A program made the translations under genes and the position numbers. Under the pieces are notes generated by a model. That model was given only the letters and a program-made list of their open reading frames with translations. It was not told the DNA's origin and searched no databases. This document shows positions 5,201 to 13,129 of a stretch of DNA of 18,044 nucleotides, in pieces. Each line of letters starts with the position of its first letter. Within the stretch, counting starts at the first letter, position 1. The DNA comes from a virus (Duplodnaviria; Heunggongvirae; Uroviricota; Caudoviricetes). Location: positions 64,001 through 82,044 of the IMG/VR virus record IMGVR_UViG_3300022699_000502. One strand, 5' to 3'.

Positions 5201-5790
5201 GGTGCTGAATTTACAATAGCTGCATCTAGGTCGTACAGAGAACCTTATACAGGCAAAGTAGATGATGTTAGGCTATATAGTAGAGCATTGTCTGATGATG
5301 AGATAAAAACATTATATAATATGACAAATCCAAATGAGAAGGAAAGAGTTAGTATGGATAGTAAAGGAACTGTATATACAAAAGGACAATTTAAGGAGAC
5401 GATATAATGGCCGAGTTAACAACCACAAGGATTTATGGTGATTTATTCGCACACGGTGATATAGATTTATTAGATGGCAATTTAGATGATGTAGCCTCTA
5501 TAGACGGCGGTGGAGATTCCGTTCAATTTGACGATAATATATATAGCCCAACATCTTTACAAGTGTCAAGTGATAATGTAAGTATTGATATGGGTGATAT
5601 AGGAGACCTCAATAATGAAGACGGTGATATTGGATTTGATATGGATAGCGGTGGTGAATTTAATGTAGGTAGAACAGGCGGAAAAATATTCACTGTCGGT
5701 GTTACTATAAATCATTATACTGATACAGAATTAAACAACAATAATATTAATGATGTAGCATCTATAGATGGCGGCGGAGATGACATATTA
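1873..5790 (+). repeat. Dispersed NNIxDVASIDGGG module, four copies (core at ~1891, ~2155, ~5488, ~5752)
   Basis: Read from translations of the 1132 and 5407 ORFs. The DNA core gatgt(g/a)gc(c/a)tc(a/t)ataga(t/c)ggcgg is recognisable in all four copies. Confidence 0.88.
2306..5407 (+). CDS. Large multi-LamG (concanavalin A-like) adhesin/receptor-binding protein with a carbohydrate-binding-like insert
   Basis: 1033 aa with three LamG-like units (WWKLDG..WYHLAIT..GMIDDVKFF; HWKFD..WYHVVHTY..GNLDDIRIYATAL; YWPLNG..WHHIAL..GKVDDVRLYSRAL). A NLLKNAGFE...LYIDDCSL CBM-like domain is inserted in unit 2. Confidence 0.85.
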   Translation: MSLVAWWKLDGDGTDSSGNGYDGIVHGSPSWSDGIIGTCYDNSADNSSTGVELLQHADAQKYDYQHSWSLWFKSTTSSGSTGNRILSRDCSEYLCANIDQDSDPNHLDYVDSAYDDIELNQWYHLAITTDDGVNYDWYLNGEHCRSGSEPYDETARPWVIGGNTEGDGDISGNEFVGMIDDVKFFDHKLSIKEVKELSRAKVAHWKFDNLNLLKNAGFEGNDLCVGDPEHWNYPKDCWKVNDLRSAPDSDGSKSFGNNWDGTAVCDSSSSSAGVWPNAYVYQDVRVGSVDEINASAWIYIPSGGGYTDCSSGNQYVYEDDGRLHLYAYDSNMNQIGEKKGLWGGELQKGSGWSRFNLSWDLPDGTETVRFQIDGGDGNNSCIDPETGHTGNAGLYIDDCSLTPVRYKDSSGYGNDGTFSGNEPIWDEDSALGNGCLYFDGDDMMVTVPHSDTIDITGDEISVSYWQKFKDAGDQDHPTITKTSETGWAVSNGYAIGQGWSDNLYSGLAGGSLGGQDASIREDGTWYHVVHTYKNGEGMKVYTNGNLEISDNSWSGTIGSSSHDLWIGDAERGGQYFGNLDDIRIYATALSQSEVQELYEQRASIDNVGNLNSQMFTESQDKLLIDEEYYECVSRLRGASPPETLNYLDWVEDDDTLGNIALEGLVYLTTTDIIPDRVEFTRINNDEGLTFYYTDSDVIIYPDGNWSVGWNYVILPTVHSWESPSSTDWSNMDRLEIYKNGSDDSSQTIGFKNLHLTKYKDNSEQLDTHLKKTGNYYIKSLNEIGSLGDDLIGYWPLNGNANDYSKNSYDGSLMNSPTLTDGVMNQCYEFDGNNQYIQMPQDTYSGALSDSDDTMSIMCWLYPTAVQSASTNHAVQNCFIGHSSSSYNDNLELGVDYDDYSLQVYLDTNSNDTTATYTDITLSLNTWHHIALSVNLVDGSVKRYHNGNLIGNDTTTWSGSNTFDNSGAEFTIAASRSYREPYTGKVDDVRLYSRALSDDEIKTLYNMTNPNEKERVSMDSKGTVYTKGQFKETI

Positions 5791-6630
5791 TTCGGCGATA
5801 ATATAGATTTAAACTCCAATGATTTAGAAGATGATACAGTTACCATTTGGGATACATCAAACCAGTATATACCACAAGGTAGGTTACAGAACGATAGTTT
5901 GACTATAAATAGTGGCACACAGCTTACAGGTGGTGGAAGTGTATCACTCGGTGGTTCTATAACATTAAATGTAGATGAAGGTGCTGGAAGTGGATTGAAC
6001 GCCGATTTGTTAGATGGAGTACATTTAGCGGACATCACTTGGTCAGATGTAAGTATGTCCACTACAGATGTAAATATGGATGATGTTAGTCCAGCTAATG
6101 TTAATGTTGATTTAAATTCAAATGATTTAGAAGATGCCGGTACTATTATATGGGATACATCTAATCAATATATCCCACAAGGTAGATTACAAAATGATAG
6201 TGTTACCGTTACTGCTGGCGATGGCTTAAAAAATGGTGGAAGTGCAAGTTTGGGTAGTAGTACAACTTTAGATATTGATGTTTCAGATTTTGCAGGTTCG
6301 CATCTATCAGATGATGGTAGTGAGAATTTACAAGTTGATGATGATTTTATTTTAAATAGTGGAGACACTATGAATGGTAATTTAACTATGTCTGGGAATA
6401 TAAATGCAGGTTCAGACAGTTCGTATGATATAGGAGCGGATGGAACAAGATTTGCAAATGTATATGCTGATAATATTTATGGTACGGTTCATTATGCTGA
6501 TATATCGTTTGAAGAGAAAAAATGTGCAATATGTGATGAACCTTTCGAAGTTGGAGATAGTATAAGTTTGATAGTTACAAATGTAAAAGAAGATGGTACA
6601 TATATGGTTCCAAAACACGAGGGTTGCTGA
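5407..6630 (+). CDS. Fibre-like protein with a C-terminal Cys/His putative Zn-binding domain
   Basis: TAATG overlap with the upstream gene. Two DVASIDGGG repeats and two DLEDxxxxIWDTSNQYIPQGRLQNDS repeats. GAGSGLNADLLDG is a common fibre motif. C-terminus CAICDEPF...PKHEGC. Confidence 0.75.
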   Translation: MAELTTTRIYGDLFAHGDIDLLDGNLDDVASIDGGGDSVQFDDNIYSPTSLQVSSDNVSIDMGDIGDLNNEDGDIGFDMDSGGEFNVGRTGGKIFTVGVTINHYTDTELNNNNINDVASIDGGGDDILFGDNIDLNSNDLEDDTVTIWDTSNQYIPQGRLQNDSLTINSGTQLTGGGSVSLGGSITLNVDEGAGSGLNADLLDGVHLADITWSDVSMSTTDVNMDDVSPANVNVDLNSNDLEDAGTIIWDTSNQYIPQGRLQNDSVTVTAGDGLKNGGSASLGSSTTLDIDVSDFAGSHLSDDGSENLQVDDDFILNSGDTMNGNLTMSGNINAGSDSSYDIGADGTRFANVYADNIYGTVHYADISFEEKKCAICDEPFEVGDSISLIVTNVKEDGTYMVPKHEGC

Positions 6631-7829
6631 TGAGTTTTAGTTGGAGTGAAGATGTAAGTAGTGGTGCCTCTATAGACGATGAGGATATGAACGAAGTATA
6701 CAATAACATACAACATGTTGAGGATGTATTGGATTCTTGGTATCAGTATGTAACATTCAACGGAACTTCAACTTACGGAGCCATATCTGGACTTAATTAT
6801 TCAACTTCTGGTGTAATATCTTCTATGACTGTTACCGCTTGGGTTAGAGTCCCTAGTGATGGTGGCGATTGGTCTATATTAGATTTTGACAGGAGTGAAT
6901 ATTTTACATGTGCGGCAGGTATTGCAGTCGGTGGTAATAACGGTGAAGGAAATGTAGTTAGTTTTCAAACACATCATACAAGTGCAGGTACTCATGATAT
7001 GTGGGGCAATCAAGATATAAGAGATAATAGATGGCATCATATAGCATGGGTATATGATGGAACATATAAAACTATATATGTTGATGGAGCGGAAGATGAA
7101 AAGTTAGATGTTAGCGGCGATGGTAATATAGGAAGTGGAACTACACGTTATGGGTTTATAGGTGATGGTAGTGAAGCCTCATCTTTTGATGGTAGTAAAA
7201 ACGACATATACTTTGAAGGTGATATCGCTAGTGTTACTTTTTGGGATAATGTTGCATTAAACCAGACAGAAGTTCAAGATGCTATGTCAGGCCATTATAA
7301 AAGCGGTATTACAGGACAATGGAGATTTAGAGAAGGTAGCGGTAGTACAGTAAGTGATAATTCTGGAAACGGATATGATGTTACTCTTTATAATTATACT
7401 TGGAATGGTTCTGATATATCATTTGGTTGGTCTGAATTTTCAGTTGAAGGTACAGAAGGTACACCTGACTCGATTACGAGTGCTCAAATGACTGATTTGA
7501 GAGACGGTACAGAATATATAGACACAAATATGTTTGCCACATATAATAGTGATAATGATTACAGTGTTGATAGTGGTCATGATACAACGGTATATAGTGG
7601 TGAAGATTCTACATATAATGATGCTGTACAGACTGGAGATAACACAGACTATAATACTAGTGAAGATGACGGGGCTAATAATACATATGACGGGTCATTA
7701 TTAAGTGCTGATGATAGTTCTGATTATAGTGAGAATGATACTGGTGATGATGAAACAGTATATACTTCACAGTATAATGATGAGAATAGTGGTTATGATG
7801 ATAGTGTTAGTTTTGATGGAGTGGTATAA
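6630..7829 (+). CDS. Leader-LamG-leader-tetrapeptide-repeat protein; putative radical SAM substrate fused to a lectin-like domain
   Basis: ATG 6630 overlaps the upstream TGA. The N-terminus MSFSWSEDVSSGASID matches the next gene's N-terminus. LamG core (WHHIAWVYDG..IYVDG; FEGDIASV; WRFREGSGSTVSDNSGNG). A second leader-like segment lies at 7416-7529, followed by 23 tetrapeptide units. Confidence 0.75.
   Translation: MSFSWSEDVSSGASIDDEDMNEVYNNIQHVEDVLDSWYQYVTFNGTSTYGAISGLNYSTSGVISSMTVTAWVRVPSDGGDWSILDFDRSEYFTCAAGIAVGGNNGEGNVVSFQTHHTSAGTHDMWGNQDIRDNRWHHIAWVYDGTYKTIYVDGAEDEKLDVSGDGNIGSGTTRYGFIGDGSEASSFDGSKNDIYFEGDIASVTFWDNVALNQTEVQDAMSGHYKSGITGQWRFREGSGSTVSDNSGNGYDVTLYNYTWNGSDISFGWSEFSVEGTEGTPDSITSAQMTDLRDGTEYIDTNMFATYNSDNDYSVDSGHDTTVYSGEDSTYNDAVQTGDNTDYNTSEDDGANNTYDGSLLSADDSSDYSENDTGDDETVYTSQYNDENSGYDDSVSFDGVV
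7542..7817 (+). repeat. 4-residue periodic core, 23 units
   Basis: YNSD NDYS VDSG HDTT VYSG EDST YNDA VQTG DNTD YNTS EDDG ANNT YDGS LLSA DDSS DYSE NDTG DDET VYTS QYND ENSG YDDS VSFD. Position 2 is D(10), N(6) or Y(4) in 20 of 23 units. Confidence 0.85.
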
Positions 7830-8354
7830 ATGAGCATAACTTGGAGCGAAGATGTGAGTGTAGGAGCATCTATTGATAGTACAGATATAGTAGAAATAAG
7901 GAATGAAGTGGATAGAGTGGATGATAATAAATGTAATGAACATGATAGTACTTATGATAATGATGTAAATGCTACCGAATATTCAGGCGAGAATTCTAAC
8001 GAAAACGCCACTAATTATTCTTCAGACAATAGCGACTATGATTCAGGTGAGAATGTTGGTGAGAATGTTAATGAGAATTTAACCAATTTTTCATCTGATA
8101 AAGACACTAATGATAGTGGTTATTGTGGAACAAATGTGAGTGGTGACTATAGTAGTAATGATACTGGATATTGTTCTACAAATAATACTACTGTTAACGG
8201 TTCACATGATGGCGATGCAGAAAGTTCTTATTATAGTGGAGAAGACAGTACTTATAATAGCGGAGAAGATTCTAGTTATAATAGTACTGAGGATAGTGGT
8301 TTTAAAGGTACTGATTATTCTGATGTATTAGGTACTGATTGTTTATTATTGTGA
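7830..8354 (+). CDS. Putative radical SAM-modified precursor: ~33 aa leader plus ~35 tetrapeptide repeats
   Basis: 174 aa. Its leader is 18/32 identical to the N-terminus of the 6630 ORF. The core is N/D/S/T/Y/G/E-rich with period 4. It lies immediately upstream of two radical SAM/SPASM genes. Confidence 0.75.
   Translation: MSITWSEDVSVGASIDSTDIVEIRNEVDRVDDNKCNEHDSTYDNDVNATEYSGENSNENATNYSSDNSDYDSGENVGENVNENLTNFSSDKDTNDSGYCGTNVSGDYSSNDTGYCSTNNTTVNGSHDGDAESSYYSGEDSTYNSGEDSSYNSTEDSGFKGTDYSDVLGTDCLLL
7929..8348 (+). repeat. 4-residue periodic core, 35 units; all four Cys in one register
   Basis: KCNE HDST YDND VNAT EYSG ENSN ... YCGT ... YCST ... YYSG EDST YNSG EDSS YNST EDSG FKGT DYSD VLGT DCLL. 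Position 2 is N11, D9, Y5, C4, other 6. Cys occur at residues 35, 99, 115 and 171 (all 3 mod 4). Confidence 0.88.
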
Positions 8355-8359
8355 TATTT

Positions 8360-9649
8360 ATGAAATTAAATGAAAGAGCAGTTGCGGTTGAAGTTGTTAG
8401 TACGGGATGGTGTCCATTAGATTGTGATTACTGTTACATCCCAAAAACAGACGAAACTAAAAATATGCATGAAAATATAGTTAATAAACTTAGGAGTGGT
8501 GAATGGATTGATAAATTAGATGATAAATTTGAAAATTTACACCATGTAGGCTTTTGGGGAACAGAACCATTACTTATATTAGATATAGTTACAAACCAAA
8601 TAGATGATTTAGTTAATGTTTTCCCAAATATAAAAACCATAGAATTTTCTACATCATTATGTTTAAATCCCTTACCAATAAAAAGGTTAAAGGATAAGTT
8701 AAACGAATATGATATTGATATGAAATGGCAAGTTAGTGCAGATGGACATTATACTGATATAAATAGGATGGATGGTGCAACCCAAAAGATTAAAGACAAT
8801 TTAAAAAAGTTGGCAAAAAATATGGATAAATTTACATTGAAGTGGAAACCCACCATATCAATAGATAATATAGAAGATATGGCAAACAACCCAGACGAGG
8901 TTGAAAAATTTCTTTCATTTTATAAAGATATGAAAGAATATGTATTAGATATAAATGATAATGTTGAAATAGCTGAGGGTTCATATGCACCAACATTAGT
9001 AGTACCAGGTAAATATACAAGTGATGACGGTAAAATTTTTGCTAAATATATTGAAAATATGAGAAAATATAATTATGATACCGCATATACTAATAGATTA
9101 AAAAGAGTAATGAATTATTCTTATGACCTAGATAGAAATCCTTCTATGTTCACGTGCTCGGGCGGAGATTCTAACTTTGGTTTTGACGATGGCAATATAC
9201 ATATATGTCATAGAACATTTTATCAAGATAGAAATAAATATATAGAAAGTATAAAACAACAGAAAAGATATGATAATTGGGATGTATCATTATTTGAGGA
9301 TGGTACTATAAATATGATAAAGGATAAGTATATAGTTGGTGATGATGATTTATTACGATTTGAATATGTCATGAGAAGTTATCACGATTATTTGGAATTA
9401 AAATTAAACCACACCAATGCAATAATAATAGAATTAGCCAAATGCGGTCAAGCAGATGATATTTATATGGATAATCCTGAGTTAAGAGAAACATTGGCTT
9501 TATTTCTACACACATCACATAGTTGTCCAGCTGAGAATTTATTAAATACAGGTGTGGTTCATTTTATGCCAGTAAGTATGATAAGATTATGGGCAAATGG
9601 AGCATTTCAAGAATTATTAAAAACAGTTGGTGATAATAATGAGTTTTAA
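8360..9649 (+). CDS. Radical SAM enzyme 1, SPASM/Twitch-like peptide maturase type
   Basis: CPLDCDYC (CxxxCxxC) at 8411-8434, FWGTEP (GGE-motif variant), QVSADG, and CSGGDSNFGFDDGNIHICHR (first SPASM/Twitch Cys pair). The start is placed at ATG 8360 after GTGAT. Confidence 0.9.
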   Translation: MKLNERAVAVEVVSTGWCPLDCDYCYIPKTDETKNMHENIVNKLRSGEWIDKLDDKFENLHHVGFWGTEPLLILDIVTNQIDDLVNVFPNIKTIEFSTSLCLNPLPIKRLKDKLNEYDIDMKWQVSADGHYTDINRMDGATQKIKDNLKKLAKNMDKFTLKWKPTISIDNIEDMANNPDEVEKFLSFYKDMKEYVLDINDNVEIAEGSYAPTLVVPGKYTSDDGKIFAKYIENMRKYNYDTAYTNRLKRVMNYSYDLDRNPSMFTCSGGDSNFGFDDGNIHICHRTFYQDRNKYIESIKQQKRYDNWDVSLFEDGTINMIKDKYIVGDDDLLRFEYVMRSYHDYLELKLNHTNAIIIELAKCGQADDIYMDNPELRETLALFLHTSHSCPAENLLNTGVVHFMPVSMIRLWANGAFQELLKTVGDNNEF

Positions 9650-10916
9650 GGAAGAAAATAATGAACTTGGGAAAAATTTTATCAAAAATATGTACTTGGA
9701 TTATTGGGAATCTGATGAGGATAATGGTAATCATAATAGAATTGAAATACAAACATCATATAAATGCAATTTAAATTGTAAATATTGTTATGTTGATAGG
9801 CATAGGGATAAATTATATAATGAAGTAGATGATGATGATTTATATGACAATGCGGAAATGTTAATAGATTGGTTAATCGAAAATGATTACAATCCTTCGA
9901 TAGACTATTTTGGCGGGGAAGTATTTGTTAATGATATCAATTTTAAAATATTAAATATGATATTAGATAAATTTAAAGATAAGGATAGCGTTCCACCCAA
10001 AATTGTAATACCAACTAATTTTACATGGATAAAAAGTGAAAATATAACAAAAAAAGTAGATGAATTAATAGAAAAATCAAGGAATATAGGTGTTCCTATA
10101 TATTTATCTGCTTCAATAGATGGGAAATATTGTACTGAGAACAGACCACCAATAAAATTCGATGATGATGATTATCAAAAATTGTTCAAGTTTTGCAAAA
10201 AATGGAAAATAAATTTCCACCCTATGATATATAGTGAAGAAATAGAAAATTGGAAAGATAATTGGTTATGGTTTCAGGATTGGTTAGAAAAGACTGATAG
10301 ACCTTTCGATTCTATATATTTGCTTGAAGTTAGAAATAGAGAATGGACAAAAGGACAAATAAACGAGTTTCAAGACTACATCAAATGGTTGATTGACTGG
10401 ACTATCAATAAAGTAGGTAAGGACGAACTGGTAAAGTTTATATTTGATGATGGTTATAATATATTAAGAACACCATTCACAACTATAGGAAGAGGTATGG
10501 GTTGTTCTATGCAAGCATCTTTATTCGTCAGGTTGTCAGATTTGACATTTAATATATGCCACCGTTTATCGTACGATGAATTTGAATTAGGCCATTTTGT
10601 TTATGATGATAAGATTGATGATTTAGTTGTAGATAAGCCTGAATTATTGATAGGAACAAAATCATTAGACCAAAAAACATATCCTGGTTGTGAAGATTGT
10701 CCCATAAATTATATGTGTAGTGGTCAATGTTTGGGTGCGATGTATGAATATACTGGGGATATGTATACACCGATACCTAATGTATGTAGATTAGAATTGG
10801 CAAAAATTAAAAGTATTATTGAAAAATTTAAGGATGAAAATATGTTAGATGAAGTAAAAAGATATGTTAACAGTAACATATTAAAACAAATAGAGTGGAT
10901 GGAGGAACAAATATGA
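9639..10916 (+). CDS. Radical SAM/SPASM enzyme 2, peptide maturase type
   Basis: CNLNCKYC at 9765-9788, YFGGE and SASIDG. Full SPASM-like pattern C-x17-C(HR)...CEDCPINYMCSGQC-x18-C. The start is placed at ATG 9639 after GGTGAT, overlapping enzyme 1. Confidence 0.92.
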   Translation: MSFKEENNELGKNFIKNMYLDYWESDEDNGNHNRIEIQTSYKCNLNCKYCYVDRHRDKLYNEVDDDDLYDNAEMLIDWLIENDYNPSIDYFGGEVFVNDINFKILNMILDKFKDKDSVPPKIVIPTNFTWIKSENITKKVDELIEKSRNIGVPIYLSASIDGKYCTENRPPIKFDDDDYQKLFKFCKKWKINFHPMIYSEEIENWKDNWLWFQDWLEKTDRPFDSIYLLEVRNREWTKGQINEFQDYIKWLIDWTINKVGKDELVKFIFDDGYNILRTPFTTIGRGMGCSMQASLFVRLSDLTFNICHRLSYDEFELGHFVYDDKIDDLVVDKPELLIGTKSLDQKTYPGCEDCPINYMCSGQCLGAMYEYTGDMYTPIPNVCRLELAKIKSIIEKFKDENMLDEVKRYVNSNILKQIEWMEEQI

Positions 10917-11395
10917 ACTTTGAGGAAAGGAAGAAAGCTATGTTAAAATTACTGAAAAGTCAAAAAGGACTTAATAAATATTGGAATGACGGCGATGCTA
11001 ATAAGATTAGAGATGCAACAAAATATATGATAAATACATTAGAGGATATAAAATGCGGAAAAACAGTAGTAATAGGTTCAAAAAGAGAAAATCAGATAAA
11101 AAATACAACAAATATGGTATTAGATGTTGTACTAAATCTTGGTATAACTGATTATATGAAGGACTTAGCAATATCATATGGTATAATATTAAAAAATTGG
11201 AATGATAATACATTAAATGATGAAACTTTAAAATATGAAGCTAAATCTATCGTAAGGTTAATAGAGTCCAATTACTCAATAAGAGACCTTATCAATATAG
11301 TAGATAAATTGAAAAGAAATAACATTGAAAATAGACATGCAAGATTGGCAAGACATTATTTAAAAACATTGGAGGATGATGTAGATGACAGTTAA
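10913..11395 (+). CDS. Hypothetical helical, Lys/Ile/Asn-rich protein in the radical SAM cassette
   Basis: ATGA overlap with the enzyme 2 stop, and GGAGG upstream. No motif recognised. Confidence 0.65.
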   Translation: MNFEERKKAMLKLLKSQKGLNKYWNDGDANKIRDATKYMINTLEDIKCGKTVVIGSKRENQIKNTTNMVLDVVLNLGITDYMKDLAISYGIILKNWNDNTLNDETLKYEAKSIVRLIESNYSIRDLINIVDKLKRNNIENRHARLARHYLKTLEDDVDDS

Positions 11396-11627
11396 AGAAA
11401 TAAATAACAATGTTGAAGATGTAAATATATTATTAACTGAAGTAAAAGATGAAGATACAGGTGAAATAACTAGAAAAAGTCTCGATATAATAATATATGG
11501 TATGCGAGATAGAATAGATATGTACGGTTTTTACGGTGACTACACATATACTGATAACAAAATAATAATCAAAAAGCATAGTAGTGCGGACGGCCATCTT
11601 GTAGAAACTATAACATACAATTATTAA
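11385..11627 (+). CDS. Hypothetical 80 aa protein, last gene of the cassette
   Basis: Overlaps the previous gene, with GGAGGATGAT upstream. Beta-strand-like pattern. No motif recognised. Confidence 0.6.
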   Translation: MTVKEINNNVEDVNILLTEVKDEDTGEITRKSLDIIIYGMRDRIDMYGFYGDYTYTDNKIIIKKHSSADGHLVETITYNY

Positions 11628-11703: not shown

Positions 11704-11719
11704 GGTTTAGGTGGATATT

Positions 11720-11926
11720 ATGAAGAAGATAAAAAAGAAAGATGACCATGGTTTAATGTGGTTTACCGATGATTTCGTGGTATTGTTCCTGGTGATGAGT
11801 ACAGTAGCACTGTTTGCATTAGGATACGAACTACCAGAATACCTAACGAACGGTTTCTATGTAAGTTTACTCTATACAACTGGTAAAAAAGGTCTACAGA
11901 TGTGGAAACAGCTCAAAAATGGATAA
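11720..11926 (+). CDS. Small membrane protein, holin-like
   Basis: 68 aa with a basic N-terminus, hydrophobic FVVLFLVMSTVALFALGY, a second weaker hydrophobic segment and a basic C-terminus. GGTGG lies upstream of ATG 11720. Confidence 0.5.
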   Translation: MKKIKKKDDHGLMWFTDDFVVLFLVMSTVALFALGYELPEYLTNGFYVSLLYTTGKKGLQMWKQLKNG

Positions 11927-11974: not shown

Positions 11975-13129
11975 ATGAAAATTTTATGGTATTCAGTAGC
12001 GCCCTTCGTTGCGTCCGGTTATGGAACTCAGACTAAAGGCGTAATTAATGAGCTAACAAAAAGAGATATTGACGTTGATGTAGATTGTTTTTCGGGTCAA
12101 CTACATGGAGATACAGAAGAGGAAATAAACGGGCAAACCGTAAAAATGTACGGCGGAAGCGGTGGAATATTCGATAAAGGTCTAATAAACAGATCAACTA
12201 ATTATGATGTTACCGTCACACATATGGATCAATGGATGATACCGGATCAATTAGAGAAGGTTAAAGGTGATATGATTCATTGGTCGATAATAGACCAGAC
12301 ACCACCACCAAGATCCTTACAGGCAATAGATGGATTTGAAAACACAAAAGGATTTGTACCTATGACGAATTGGGGTAAAAGCCAAATGGAAAAATATTAT
12401 GATTCGGATAATATGTTTGATCCAATATATCATGGTGTTGATCTAGACATATTTACTCCAGATAAGTCAGGTTTAGACGATAACTACCAAAAATTCGTCG
12501 ATAGTGCCGATTTCTTGGTTGGTATAATCGGTACAAACACATTGAGAGAAATGATACCGAATAATTTAGAAGCATTTTGTAAATTCGCGGAAAAAATAGA
12601 CGAAAAAGCTAAAATATATGTTAATAGCCAATTATATAGACAAGACGGGCATCATCTGCCAACTATCGTAGAAAATTTATTAGCAGATTATGATGTTACT
12701 AACGATCAAATTGTATTTAGAAATCCAGATAAAAACAAATTACCAGTTGACCAACTAGCTGCATTATACGCAAACATGGATGTGCATTTAGCAACAACAA
12801 TGGGAGATAGTTTCGGAATTCCAATTTGTGAAGCGGGTGCCTGCAAAACACCGTCCATAGTTACAAAATTTAGTGCACCTCCAGAGCTAGTAGATGATGG
12901 TAGAGGACTAAAAGTAAAACCACATGCTGATATTTGGATGCAAAGAACGAATAGCAAACAGAAAATCCCAAGTACAGACGATATTGCTAGAGCATTAGAG
13001 ATCTATTACGAAGATGAAAAGAAGCGTAAACTTCATGGTCGAAAAATGCGTAAATGGGCAAAAATGAACTGCAATTGGAACACCGTAGGAGAACAATGGG
13101 CCAATCTACTGAGGCGAGAATACGGCTGA
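11975..13129 (+). CDS. GT-B fold glycosyltransferase, family 4-like
   Basis: N-terminal MKILWYSVAPFVASGYG, plus PIYHGVD and LYANMDV...TMGDSFGIPICEAGACKTPSIVT...ELV (acidic-x7-Glu GT4 motif). Confidence 0.88.
   Translation: MKILWYSVAPFVASGYGTQTKGVINELTKRDIDVDVDCFSGQLHGDTEEEINGQTVKMYGGSGGIFDKGLINRSTNYDVTVTHMDQWMIPDQLEKVKGDMIHWSIIDQTPPPRSLQAIDGFENTKGFVPMTNWGKSQMEKYYDSDNMFDPIYHGVDLDIFTPDKSGLDDNYQKFVDSADFLVGIIGTNTLREMIPNNLEAFCKFAEKIDEKAKIYVNSQLYRQDGHHLPTIVENLLADYDVTNDQIVFRNPDKNKLPVDQLAALYANMDVHLATTMGDSFGIPICEAGACKTPSIVTKFSAPPELVDDGRGLKVKPHADIWMQRTNSKQKIPSTDDIARALEIYYEDEKKRKLHGRKMRKWAKMNCNWNTVGEQWANLLRREYG

Follow-up and report, generated by a model that had tools for sequence, protein, structure and literature searches.

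The last 18 kb of an 82-kb tailed-virus record from IMG/VR (IMGVR_UViG_3300022699_000502, positions 64,001 to 82,044; these 18,044 nucleotides are the window analyzed here) encode two adjacent acidic proteins whose C-terminal tails, or cores, carry mainly Asp, Asn or Tyr at every fourth residue, followed by two different radical-SAM (S-adenosyl-L-methionine) enzymes and a small helical helper protein. The same cassette was found in 78 viral contigs, several metagenome contigs and one archaeal genome bin; its members are a pair of paralogs that share a conserved 36-aa head, two radical-SAM enzymes that differ from each other and a helper of ~165 aa. On balance, we favor the view that the two proteins are paired A- and B-type substrates of a virus-encoded maturation system that would work at the protein scale and resemble those of peptides that are made on ribosomes and modified posttranslationally (RiPPs). 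The two radical-SAM enzymes most likely modify the two ladder proteins chemically.

Periodic cores, heads and enzymes of the window

The preliminary description of this DNA had singled out positions 7542 to 8348, a span that comprises the C-terminal core of the first protein and nearly all of the second. The first (A-type) runs from 6630, or from 6624 if read as 401 aa, to 7829, with its core beginning at residue 305 of the 399-aa ATG form, and the second (B-type, 174 aa) from 7830 to 8354. Their parts are as follows.

6630..7829, + strand: putative A-type substrate protein, 399 aa from ATG (open reading frame [ORF]), with head motif 1, LamG domain, head motif 2 and periodic core
6630..6737, + strand: head (leader-like) motif, copy 1, MSFSWSEDVSSGASIDDEDMNEVYNNIQHVEDVLDS (head-motif hidden Markov model [HMM])
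6816..7277, + strand: LamG/concanavalin-like lectin domain between the head motifs (Pfam PF13385, Laminin_G_3)
7416..7538, + strand: head motif, copy 2, ISFGWSEFSVEGTEGTPDSITSAQMTDLRDGTEYIDTNMFA, immediately preceding the core (HMM domain 2, 70.5 bits)
7542..7826, + strand: A-type periodic core, 95 aa, no Cys (key position D10 N6 Y4)
7830..8354, + strand: putative B-type substrate protein, 174 aa, with one head motif, junction Cys35, a 35-unit core and C-terminal Cys171-LLL
7932..7934, + strand: codon of Cys35, in DDNKC-NEH-D; family motif C-x-x-H-[D/N] (alignment)
8124..8174, + strand: internal Cys units GYCG (Cys99) and GYCS (Cys115), 16 residues apart
8340..8351, + strand: C-terminal Cys171, then LLL; the closest relatives end in FCDMLA, WCGHLA and YCDILA

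The strict four-residue register that had been claimed for both cores was borne out. Tested against 3,000 shuffles, the mutual information that residue type shares with position modulo k was maximal at k = 4 (z = 15.2 and 6.4 in the 174-aa and 399-aa cores, respectively), while k = 3, 5 and 7 gave no periodic signal in either. The residue autocorrelation proposed earlier as a check for period 4 was strongest at lag 8 (z = 7.9 and 2.5, respectively) and was also seen at lag 16, so that the unit is an octad of two tetrads. Counted from residue 33 of the 174-aa protein, the third position of the tetrad is N in 11 units, D in 9, Y in 5 and C in 4 (29 of 35, exactly as first reported), and Cys35, 99, 115 and 171 all fall in this N/D/Y phase; four Cys would share one given phase by chance in ~1/256 of cases, although two of these four are conserved junction or C-terminal residues and not ladder members. 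The 399-aa core is indeed free of Cys, and its matching position holds D10, N6 and Y4, that is, 20 of ~24 units (20 of 23 in the earlier count); the sole Cys of this protein sits in the LamG domain. At the DNA level, the arrays detected by Tandem Repeats Finder were all short, with 12-nt units at 7700-7731 and at 8046-8078 and with 24-nt units at 8219-8284, and the register is therefore maintained at the protein level and not by recent DNA duplication. Both cores are rich in D, S, N, T, G and Y, with 4 to 7% Val, few other hydrophobic residues and, in the 142-residue core, just two His. The motif [Y/F]-x-[S/N/D/G] occurs 14 times in the 174-aa core versus 7.9 expected (z 3.5; z 1.2 in the 399-aa core), and C-x3-[D/E] occurs once, which is not above chance.

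Both proteins open with a 36-residue head motif (MS-x-x-WSEDVS-x-GASID...E...N.V..V.D; family consensus MAFSWTEPISSGDLIKAADINEIRDNIDYIDD), of which the second copy in the A-type protein is without the junction Cys. The Laminin_G_3 match covers residues 63 to 216 (E value of 2.9e-16, 60.4 bits versus a cut-off of 27.6 bits). This domain is missing from the A-type proteins of four related loci (L003, L093, L095 and L097; loci are designated by L numbers), which carry two head motifs. No hydrophobic signal-like N terminus was seen in the substrates. A Pfam scan of 22 B-type substrates matched no family. An AlphaFold2 model of the 174-aa protein based on a 22-sequence alignment gave the head a pLDDT of 77 to 85, as an extended stretch plus a helix at residues 17 to 33, and residues 40 to 157 a pLDDT below 50 with no fold. 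The Atlas model of the core was equally poor (pLDDT of 0.42). The core is thus predicted to be disordered, as RiPP cores are, a weak structure model being no proof of disorder. None of these core models showed a confident repetitive beta fold with an inward hydrophobic position, and the ordinary beta-solenoid that had been named as an outcome unfavorable to modification did not appear in the monomer. A trimer model (three copies of the 174-aa protein; score of 0.01, partner pLDDT of 29) says nothing either way.

The cassette genes downstream of the substrates overlap or abut:

8339..9649, + strand: radical-SAM enzyme 1, 436 aa from TTG (Pfam, NCBIfam); in the database, 429 aa with a start at 8360
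9627..10916, + strand: radical-SAM enzyme 2, 429 aa; its SPASM domain is complete, with seven Cys
10895..11395, + strand: helper protein, 166 aa, all-helical bundle with a conserved C-terminal LS+HYL motif

Enzyme 1 combines the CX3CX2C motif with only three further conserved Cys (C25, C29, C32, C273, C290 and C396 across 61 homologues) and is, judged from its sequence, a twitch-like radical-SAM enzyme; its nearest solved structures are ChlB, anSME and CteB. In enzyme 2, ten Cys are invariant in 45 sequences (C47, C51, C54, C293, C311, C355, C358, C364, C368 and C387), the SPASM model TIGR04085 scores 29.5 versus a cut-off of 27, and the nearest solved structure is CteB (5wgg, E value of 3.6e-13). 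The best curated matches and structures for both enzymes (PapB, HxsB, SCIFF, anSME, CteB and ChlB) all modify peptides or proteins. The helper was modeled by AlphaFold2 with a pLDDT of 91.

The cassette family in relatives

Relatives were reached via the enzymes because a homology search with the 174-aa protein returned low-complexity word matches only. This retrieved 78 viral loci plus several metagenome and genome-bin contigs. A related-locus search with a single enzyme sequence found nothing, and neither did a DNA search of a phage collection with the window. Enzyme 2 had 267 cluster representatives at E < 1e-30 (at least 267 clusters at 50% identity), and enzyme 1 had 225 relatives at E ≤ 1e-5 in a set of 5.8 billion proteins, none of them informatively named. 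Enzyme 1 is present in 76 of 82 loci, directly upstream of enzyme 2 in nearly all 76, and the helper in 55 of 83, overlapping enzyme 2 or trailing it within ~100 nt in 45. Four loci (L021, L022, L023 and L026) have two helper copies, one after each enzyme, in an alternative order of enzyme 1, helper, A-type, B-type, enzyme 2 and second helper (for example, L023:3793-8832); the substrates there lie between two enzyme-helper modules with paralogous helpers. The enzyme 2 homologue of L039 (6386-8203) has 605 aa and contains a Hint/intein-like insert within the CX3CX2C motif (CNLNC|FPAGTMIRM...), also seen in L041, L044 and L045; its Hint-type Pfam matches (E value of ~1e-5) stay under the gathering scores.

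A profile of the head motif found 73 ORFs in 40 loci, adjoining the enzyme pair in every case inspected, and the usual locus has one A-type protein with two head motifs and one B-type protein with one. Period 4 was significant (z > 4) in 53 of 69 distinct cores, with a median z of 9.7; period 5 was found in none of the 69 and period 3 only in the B-type core of L003 (z 7.8). In L026, a single register runs across 320 and 337 residues. Ladder ORFs are rare in these loci (~55 of 2,955 ORFs), and nearly all abut the enzyme pair. Over the head-bearing cores, the four positions of the consensus tetrad contain D 28%, N 20%, Y 17%, H 12% and C 4%; S 20%, N 10%, A 10% and D 9%; S 23%, T 22%, G 16% and A 10%; and V 13%, Y 12%, D 11% and T 10%, which gives a family unit of [D/N/Y/H]-x-[S/T/G]-x. 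Two unit types can be told apart, [V/Y]-[D/N]-[S/A]-[S/T/G] and [T/S/G]-[Y/H]-x-[S/T], and some relatives, such as L025, have cores rich in His and Tyr. Codons of the form NAY (D, N, Y and H) fill 79.5% of key positions versus 5.5% for NAR (E, Q and K), a figure that is inflated, and thus partly circular, because the register was set by maximizing D/N/Y/H, which leaves the contrasts between residues unaffected. Ser (0.9%) and Thr (0.5%) are nearly absent from the key position compared to 18 to 22% at neighboring positions. From these contrasts, Asx, Tyr and His are favored at the key position, and Glx, Lys, Ser and Thr are disfavored. Adenine mutagenesis of the diversity-generating retroelement (DGR) type was rejected as the source of NAY, since it would be expected to yield NNY, with much of the Ser, Thr, Gly and Ala that is near absent there.

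Conserved heads contrast with hypervariable cores. In the closest pairs of loci, the heads are 77 to 93% identical and the enzymes 61 to 91%, while the cores are only 30 to 50% identical in three of the four pairs (71 to 79% in the fourth, L014/L016). Conserved heads with divergent cores are a leader/core signature. Of 116 indels between relatives, 61 were multiples of four residues, a test that is biased by the alignment of periodic sequences and carries little weight. Most relatives have small substrates (98 to 200 aa), with cores of 40 to 340 residues, and that of L020 has a fused N-terminal region of roughly 200 aa.

Tail spacing is clade specific. Distant enzyme clades (28 to 30% identity) are accompanied by S-[N/Y/H/D]-G tails of period 5 (z up to 43; [T/S]-x-S-[N/D/Y/H]-G) or period 9 (WSQGANxNG and NTCSNGSxS); loci with such tails are L069:5367-5618, L083:4480-5565, L084:4441-5580, L074:4703-5563 and L075:4570-5574. 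The nearest cassette by enzyme 2 (48% identity) is L003 (1-12705), on contig GCA_022865275.1 of the archaeal genome bin. It ends ~500 nt from archaeal genes for ribosomal protein, NusA-KH and RNA polymerase B and is either an archaeal provirus, integrated or adjacent, or an artifact in which binning or assembly joined unrelated sequences.

A possible mechanism and the alternatives

In the mechanism that we favor, the 36-residue head (extended stretch plus amphipathic helix) would be the handle for enzyme 1, enzyme 2 and the helper, and the enzymes would act repeatedly along a disordered, hypervariable tail. The sole conserved feature of this tail would be Asp, Asn, Tyr, His or, rarely, Cys at every fourth position, amid Ser, Thr, Gly and Ala. 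These ladder residues share a short beta-methylene side chain bearing a pi system or a heteroatom and may be where radical chemistry takes place again and again, by giving up a hydrogen from carbon or by serving as the heteroatom or aromatic partner of a short cross-link within each tetrad or octad. The product would undergo neither leader removal nor export and would work with the tail-fiber apparatus as a stapled, protease-resistant, fast-evolving appendage, with one of the two substrates here also fused to a LamG lectin. We expect it to remain a protein because no peptidase or exporter was seen among the six-gene block (6630-11627) or in those neighborhoods of relatives that were read, because tails reach 337 residues and because whole domains are fused to them.

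Provided that modification takes place, the leading candidate, somewhat short of an even chance, would be C-C or C-O/C-N cross-links of short range inside the tetrad or octad. Thioethers at the few Cys (including the junction Cys-x3-Asp) combined with another reaction elsewhere, and epimerization, would be lesser candidates of equal and fairly low probability, with something else making up the rest. Enzymes of the SPASM type abstract hydrogen or form bonds at comparable sites: PapB at the C-beta of Asp, NxxcB at the C-beta of Asn, the dynobactin synthase at the C-beta of Asn and Tyr with a His nitrogen as donor, and the triceptide enzymes. A broader proposal, which is tentative and rather doubtful at present, is that tailed viruses of bacteria and archaea employ a dedicated pair of radical-SAM enzymes to write a sulfur-poor ladder of cross-links or stereo-inversions on the Asp, Asn, Tyr and His residues of whole fiber-associated proteins. 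There would be one link per four residues (five or nine in other clades), giving a rigid, protease-proof filament for host interaction.

Several points weigh against modification of the tails. The case for it is built entirely on gene neighborhood and sequence pattern, and the NAY count is partly circular; association with the virion likewise derives from context only. Neither enzyme reaches any curated family cut-off (the best is PapB, at 62.6 bits versus 340), and the chemistry of known families is therefore not transferable. No PqqD-like RiPP recognition element (RRE) for leader binding was found, fused or discrete, and the SAM motifs, which begin at residues 25 and 47, leave no room for an N-terminal one. 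The helper is a plain helical bundle for which Foldseek found nothing in the PDB better than an E value of 0.26. The spacing is not absolute either, with register shifts in many relatives (46 in 8,242 residues). Finally, in 15 loci the cassette is joined by a glycosyltransferase, so that glycosylation may be what part of the Ser/Thr/Asn pattern serves instead.

The closest working analogue is the HXS antiphage system, in which two different radical-SAM enzymes and a small partner mature a whole protein with short-period [His]-x-[Ser] repeats; HxsC binds HxsD, and the modification maps into the H-x-S repeat (PMC13128918), which makes it a precedent for radical-SAM modification of whole proteins. 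Another precedent is that of thioether cross-links in archaeal proteins (PMC13692751). HxsB is the second-best curated match of enzyme 2 (E value of 1e-11; 44.3 bits, and 20.2 bits for enzyme 1, versus a cut-off of 370), and in the cassette family each enzyme can have its own helper, as in the four loci mentioned above. HxsC was not among the curated matches of the window enzymes. [quoted passage not shown] The window system, in contrast, is viral, lies in a tail-fiber module and has two paralogous substrates with 24 to 35 acidic units and no cleavage machinery seen. With its two His, the 142-residue core has no His-x-Ser repeats; only the generalized [D/N/Y/H]-x-[S/T/G] is present.

PapB is the best curated match of both enzymes (62.6 and 45 bits), which together with CteB as the structure nearest to enzyme 2 recalls the ranthipeptide/SCIFF group. 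PapB forms the Cys-X3-Asp thioethers of freyrasin and CteB makes thermocellin; the junction Cys35-x-x-x-Asp39 of the window has the same spacing, and every in-phase Cys is followed four residues on by D, N, Y or H. However, each thioether needs one Cys, and here Cys occurs in 4 of 35 units of one core and 0 of 24 of the other; these systems also use a single enzyme with an N-terminal RRE. The triceptide enzymes, which form three-residue cyclophanes (XyeB, GrrM/OscB, YhhB and FxsB), and repeat-core RiPPs such as TvgA/TvgB resemble the cassette in their short repeated motifs (aromatic-x-Ser/Asn/Asp or the four-residue TVGG), which one SPASM enzyme processes many times. They differ in that the enzyme matches reach only 18 to 34 bits versus cut-offs of 310 to 450, their products are small peptides, about half of the key residues here are Asx, which cannot be the aromatic partner, and the corresponding motif, enriched in the 174-aa core, is not enriched in the 399-aa core. 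The window system qualifies for none of the known families considered. With RiPP-like systems in general it has in common the leader/core split and radical-SAM enzymes with auxiliary Cys; an RRE was not found, nor was a peptidase or exporter in the block and the neighborhoods read.

Among other explanations, the one that survives best, although we regard it as unlikely, is that the tails are unmodified structural or entropic fiber parts (triple beta-helix, solenoid or disordered acidic bristle) and that the radical-SAM pair acts elsewhere, for example, on a sugar or nucleotide destined for the nearby glycosyltransferase; the four-residue period would then stem from folding or solubility. The eight-residue super-period, the preponderance of indels in multiples of four, the tail-fiber module with its recurrent glycosyltransferase and the V-x-V octads of L026, which presumably resemble the octapeptide beta-helix repeats of phage spikes, would all fit it. 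Besides, some twitch/SPASM-type enzymes, such as BtrN, do act on sugars. Nevertheless, neither AlphaFold2 nor Atlas gives the core a fold, a solenoid built from the window cores would be nearly devoid of hydrophobic filling, and many relatives tolerate a shifted register. The enzymes match nothing but maturases of peptides or proteins, and a conserved head with a hypervariable tail that is always found by the enzymes would be left unexplained.

We give a low probability to a classical diffusible RiPP, with heads cleaved as leaders and modified cores released as a toxin, signal or anti-defense peptide. The leader/core logic and SPASM enzymes are there, the substrates of most relatives are as small as stated above, and on the archaeal-bin contig the cassette stands beside cellular genes. 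On the other hand, the absence of a peptidase or exporter from the block and the neighborhoods read, the cores of 320 to 337 residues in L026, the fused domains (LamG here, ~200 aa in L020) and the constant place inside tail-fiber operons speak against it.

Equally improbable in our view is a glycosylation scaffold, in which Asn-x-Ser/Thr and Ser/Thr arrays would be decorated by the neighboring glycosyltransferase and the radical-SAM role would be secondary or unrelated. N-x-S/T sequons number 12 in the 174-aa core versus 6.0 expected (z 3.1), the consensus [D/N/Y/H]-x-[S/T/G] includes the sequon, and Glycos_transf_1 genes lie in or beside the cassette here and in 15 other loci. But the 399-aa core has no sequon excess (z 0.3), and Asn takes just 20% of key positions, with D, Y and H equally accepted, for which the N-glycan sequon was rejected as the conserved feature. 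Moreover, 67 of 83 loci have no glycosyltransferase within reach, while the enzyme pair is near universal, and N-glycosylation of the oligosaccharyltransferase type, which acts outside the cell, does not suit a lytic tailed virus. The gene recurrence does suggest that Ser/Thr-rich tails may optionally be glycosylated. Loci with such genes include L011:8275-9213, L063:8272-9216, L014:9999-10985 and L020:8891-9877, and in two loci the gene separates enzyme 2 from the helper. Those in the cassettes of other loci belong to the same Pfam family as the glycosyltransferase of the window but to a different lineage, and jackhmmer started from the window protein found no relative in the loci.

The remaining proposal concerns the Cys residues. 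The preliminary description had read the ladder as the remains of a Cys-x-x-x substrate whose Cys had given way to Asn, Asp and Tyr by single-base steps, possibly under salt adaptation. Its premise that the neighboring radical-SAM enzymes take the cores as substrates agrees with the conserved head, hypervariable core and enzyme pair, which lie together in every relative examined; descent from a Cys ladder is not supported. Cys does share the Asx slot family-wide, 139 core Cys being distributed over the four phases as 74 (key), 51 (next), 7 and 7 with Cys neutral in the register assignment, and Cys units have the neighbors of Asx units of the [V/Y]-[D/N] type (Y or V before, S or G after). Yet most of this signal comes from a conserved junction Cys, which 58 of 69 cores carry no more than 12 residues past the head, with H at +3 in 33 and N or D at +4 in 31. 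Cys35 is that junction residue, and Cys171 is part of an [aromatic]-C-x-x-L-A/L ending that also occurs in the closest relatives, which are just as acidic (11 of 69 cores have a Cys among their last 8 residues). Only Cys99 and Cys115 are ordinary ladder units.

The state of the relatives agrees with this. No ladder with Cys at every fourth position was seen among the 69 head-bearing cores and ~100 tail regions, the D/N/Y/H ladder being the family-wide state. Nearly all period-4 cores have 0 to 3% Cys (maximum of 4.5%, L051) regardless of enzyme acidity, and the richest tails (5 to 7.5%) are mostly from the distant period-5 and period-9 clades. Tabulated against enzyme acidity, homologues gathered through the head showed that nonacidic relatives share the ladder at 0 to 3% Cys and that the Cys fraction does not correlate with acidity (rho of +0.18, P of 0.15), the sign being the wrong one. 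The window enzymes are the most acidic and the only clearly salt-adapted ones of the IMG/VR set, with a ladder like the others; the other members are near neutral, with 76 to 94% D/N/Y/H/C at the key position and ~1% Cys. Curated families with Cys at every fourth (CXXX repeat; TIGR04115, TIGR04119 and TIGR04116) or fifth residue (NF038107, CefB) do parallel the period-4 and period-5 clades in having one special residue at a fixed period, here Asp/Asn/Tyr/His and not Cys. Enzyme 1 also gives weak collinear matches to two CXXX-repeat maturase models (TIGR04115, E value of 0.004, 16.6 bits versus 350; TIGR04119, 0.003, 16.8 versus 150). The scores miss the cut-offs by an order of magnitude, homologues reach at most 32 bits, the CXXX-associated protein TIGR04116 has no match in the 82-kb record at E ≤ 10, and the CXXX-target Pfam family PF27846, found on 19% of one look-alike Atlas cluster (score of 0.81), is a lead only. 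Descent from a Cys ladder with erosion by salt is not supported and, being largely refuted, is the least probable explanation of all, although by analogy the system may work in the manner of Cys systems of fixed period, the key slot being filled by a different residue.

Genomic setting and implications

The window also encodes an HK97-type major head protein and tail-fiber-type proteins, and its proteome is very acidic at a G+C content of ~36%. The cassette is flanked as follows:

5407..6630, + strand: fiber/baseplate-type protein, 407 aa (PHROG baseplate match, E value of 2e-6), directly upstream of the cassette
11975..13129, + strand: glycosyltransferase (Glycos_transf_1/GT4-like; Pfam PF13692, 36.7 bits, and PF00534, 34.8 bits), after a short gap

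The link to the tail module consists of the fiber-type genes upstream, here and in relatives, and the LamG fusion. Homologues of the 407-aa protein precede the cassette in L011, L029 and L063, two of them with tail-fiber PHROG matches. Its C terminus (...KKCAICDEPF...VPKHEGC, window 6490-6630) recurs at the end of the gene that precedes the cassette in L093 (3201-4130) and L095 (811-1830), the closest relatives. The tail shared by the three, ...F-x-EK+C-x-x-C-x-E-x-F-x-x-G-[DE]-x-[IV]-SLIV...EDGTY-x-[IV]PKHEGC, looks like a small Cys/His metal-binding knob. Just upstream of another cassette, L018:3363-4148 codes for a collagen-like period-3 protein (z 33.8) with tail-fiber PHROG matches. The window glycosyltransferase starts 580 nt downstream of the cassette, and two small ORFs of 80 and 71 aa between it and the helper (11385-11627 and 11711-11926) had no family match and no homologue among the fetched loci.

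The host of this virus is likely archaeal. Outside the window, the record encodes an eRF1-type release factor of 327 aa (G000:C1:27768-28754, L085) with all three eRF1 domains above the Pfam cut-offs (eRF1_2 at 69 bits). Such a viral release factor of the archaeo-eukaryotic type hints at an archaeal host or at manipulated translation termination. A family-X DNA polymerase and an RNA ligase are encoded elsewhere in the record, and a third radical-SAM protein (265 aa) lies in the early/replication region (G000:C1:11829-12629, L087), in a position unrelated to the cassette.

Literature searches found no description of these cassettes, which appear from their genes to form a large, undescribed family in viruses, and no paper on the CXXX-repeat or the Cys-every-fifth family. 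Radical-SAM maturases are known mainly from small bacterial peptide natural products; here what looks like the same scheme of handle, variable core and iterative enzyme is met with on whole proteins, in viruses and in a tail-fiber module. The window contributes the first clearly salt-adapted member, probably from an archaeal virus; together with the nearest relative on an archaeal-bin contig, it indicates that the ladder is independent of host chemistry. Through the LamG fusion, one substrate is linked directly to a domain of the adhesin type. The analysis further adds a quantified period-4 ladder with a family consensus, the NAY-only key position, the junction Cys motif and the period-specific clades. 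Were modification of the tails to be confirmed, the chemistry would probably be new for this enzyme class, because most units carry no sulfur, and the virion or its contact with the host would gain a new kind of component or device. The at least 267 enzyme clusters, with their clades of period 4, 5 and 9, would then offer enzymologists many naturally varied substrates. Should the more doubtful proposal of a cross-linked or stereo-inverted ladder be true, it would add a class to the known protein modifications and give viruses a novel route to more varied and tougher adhesins.

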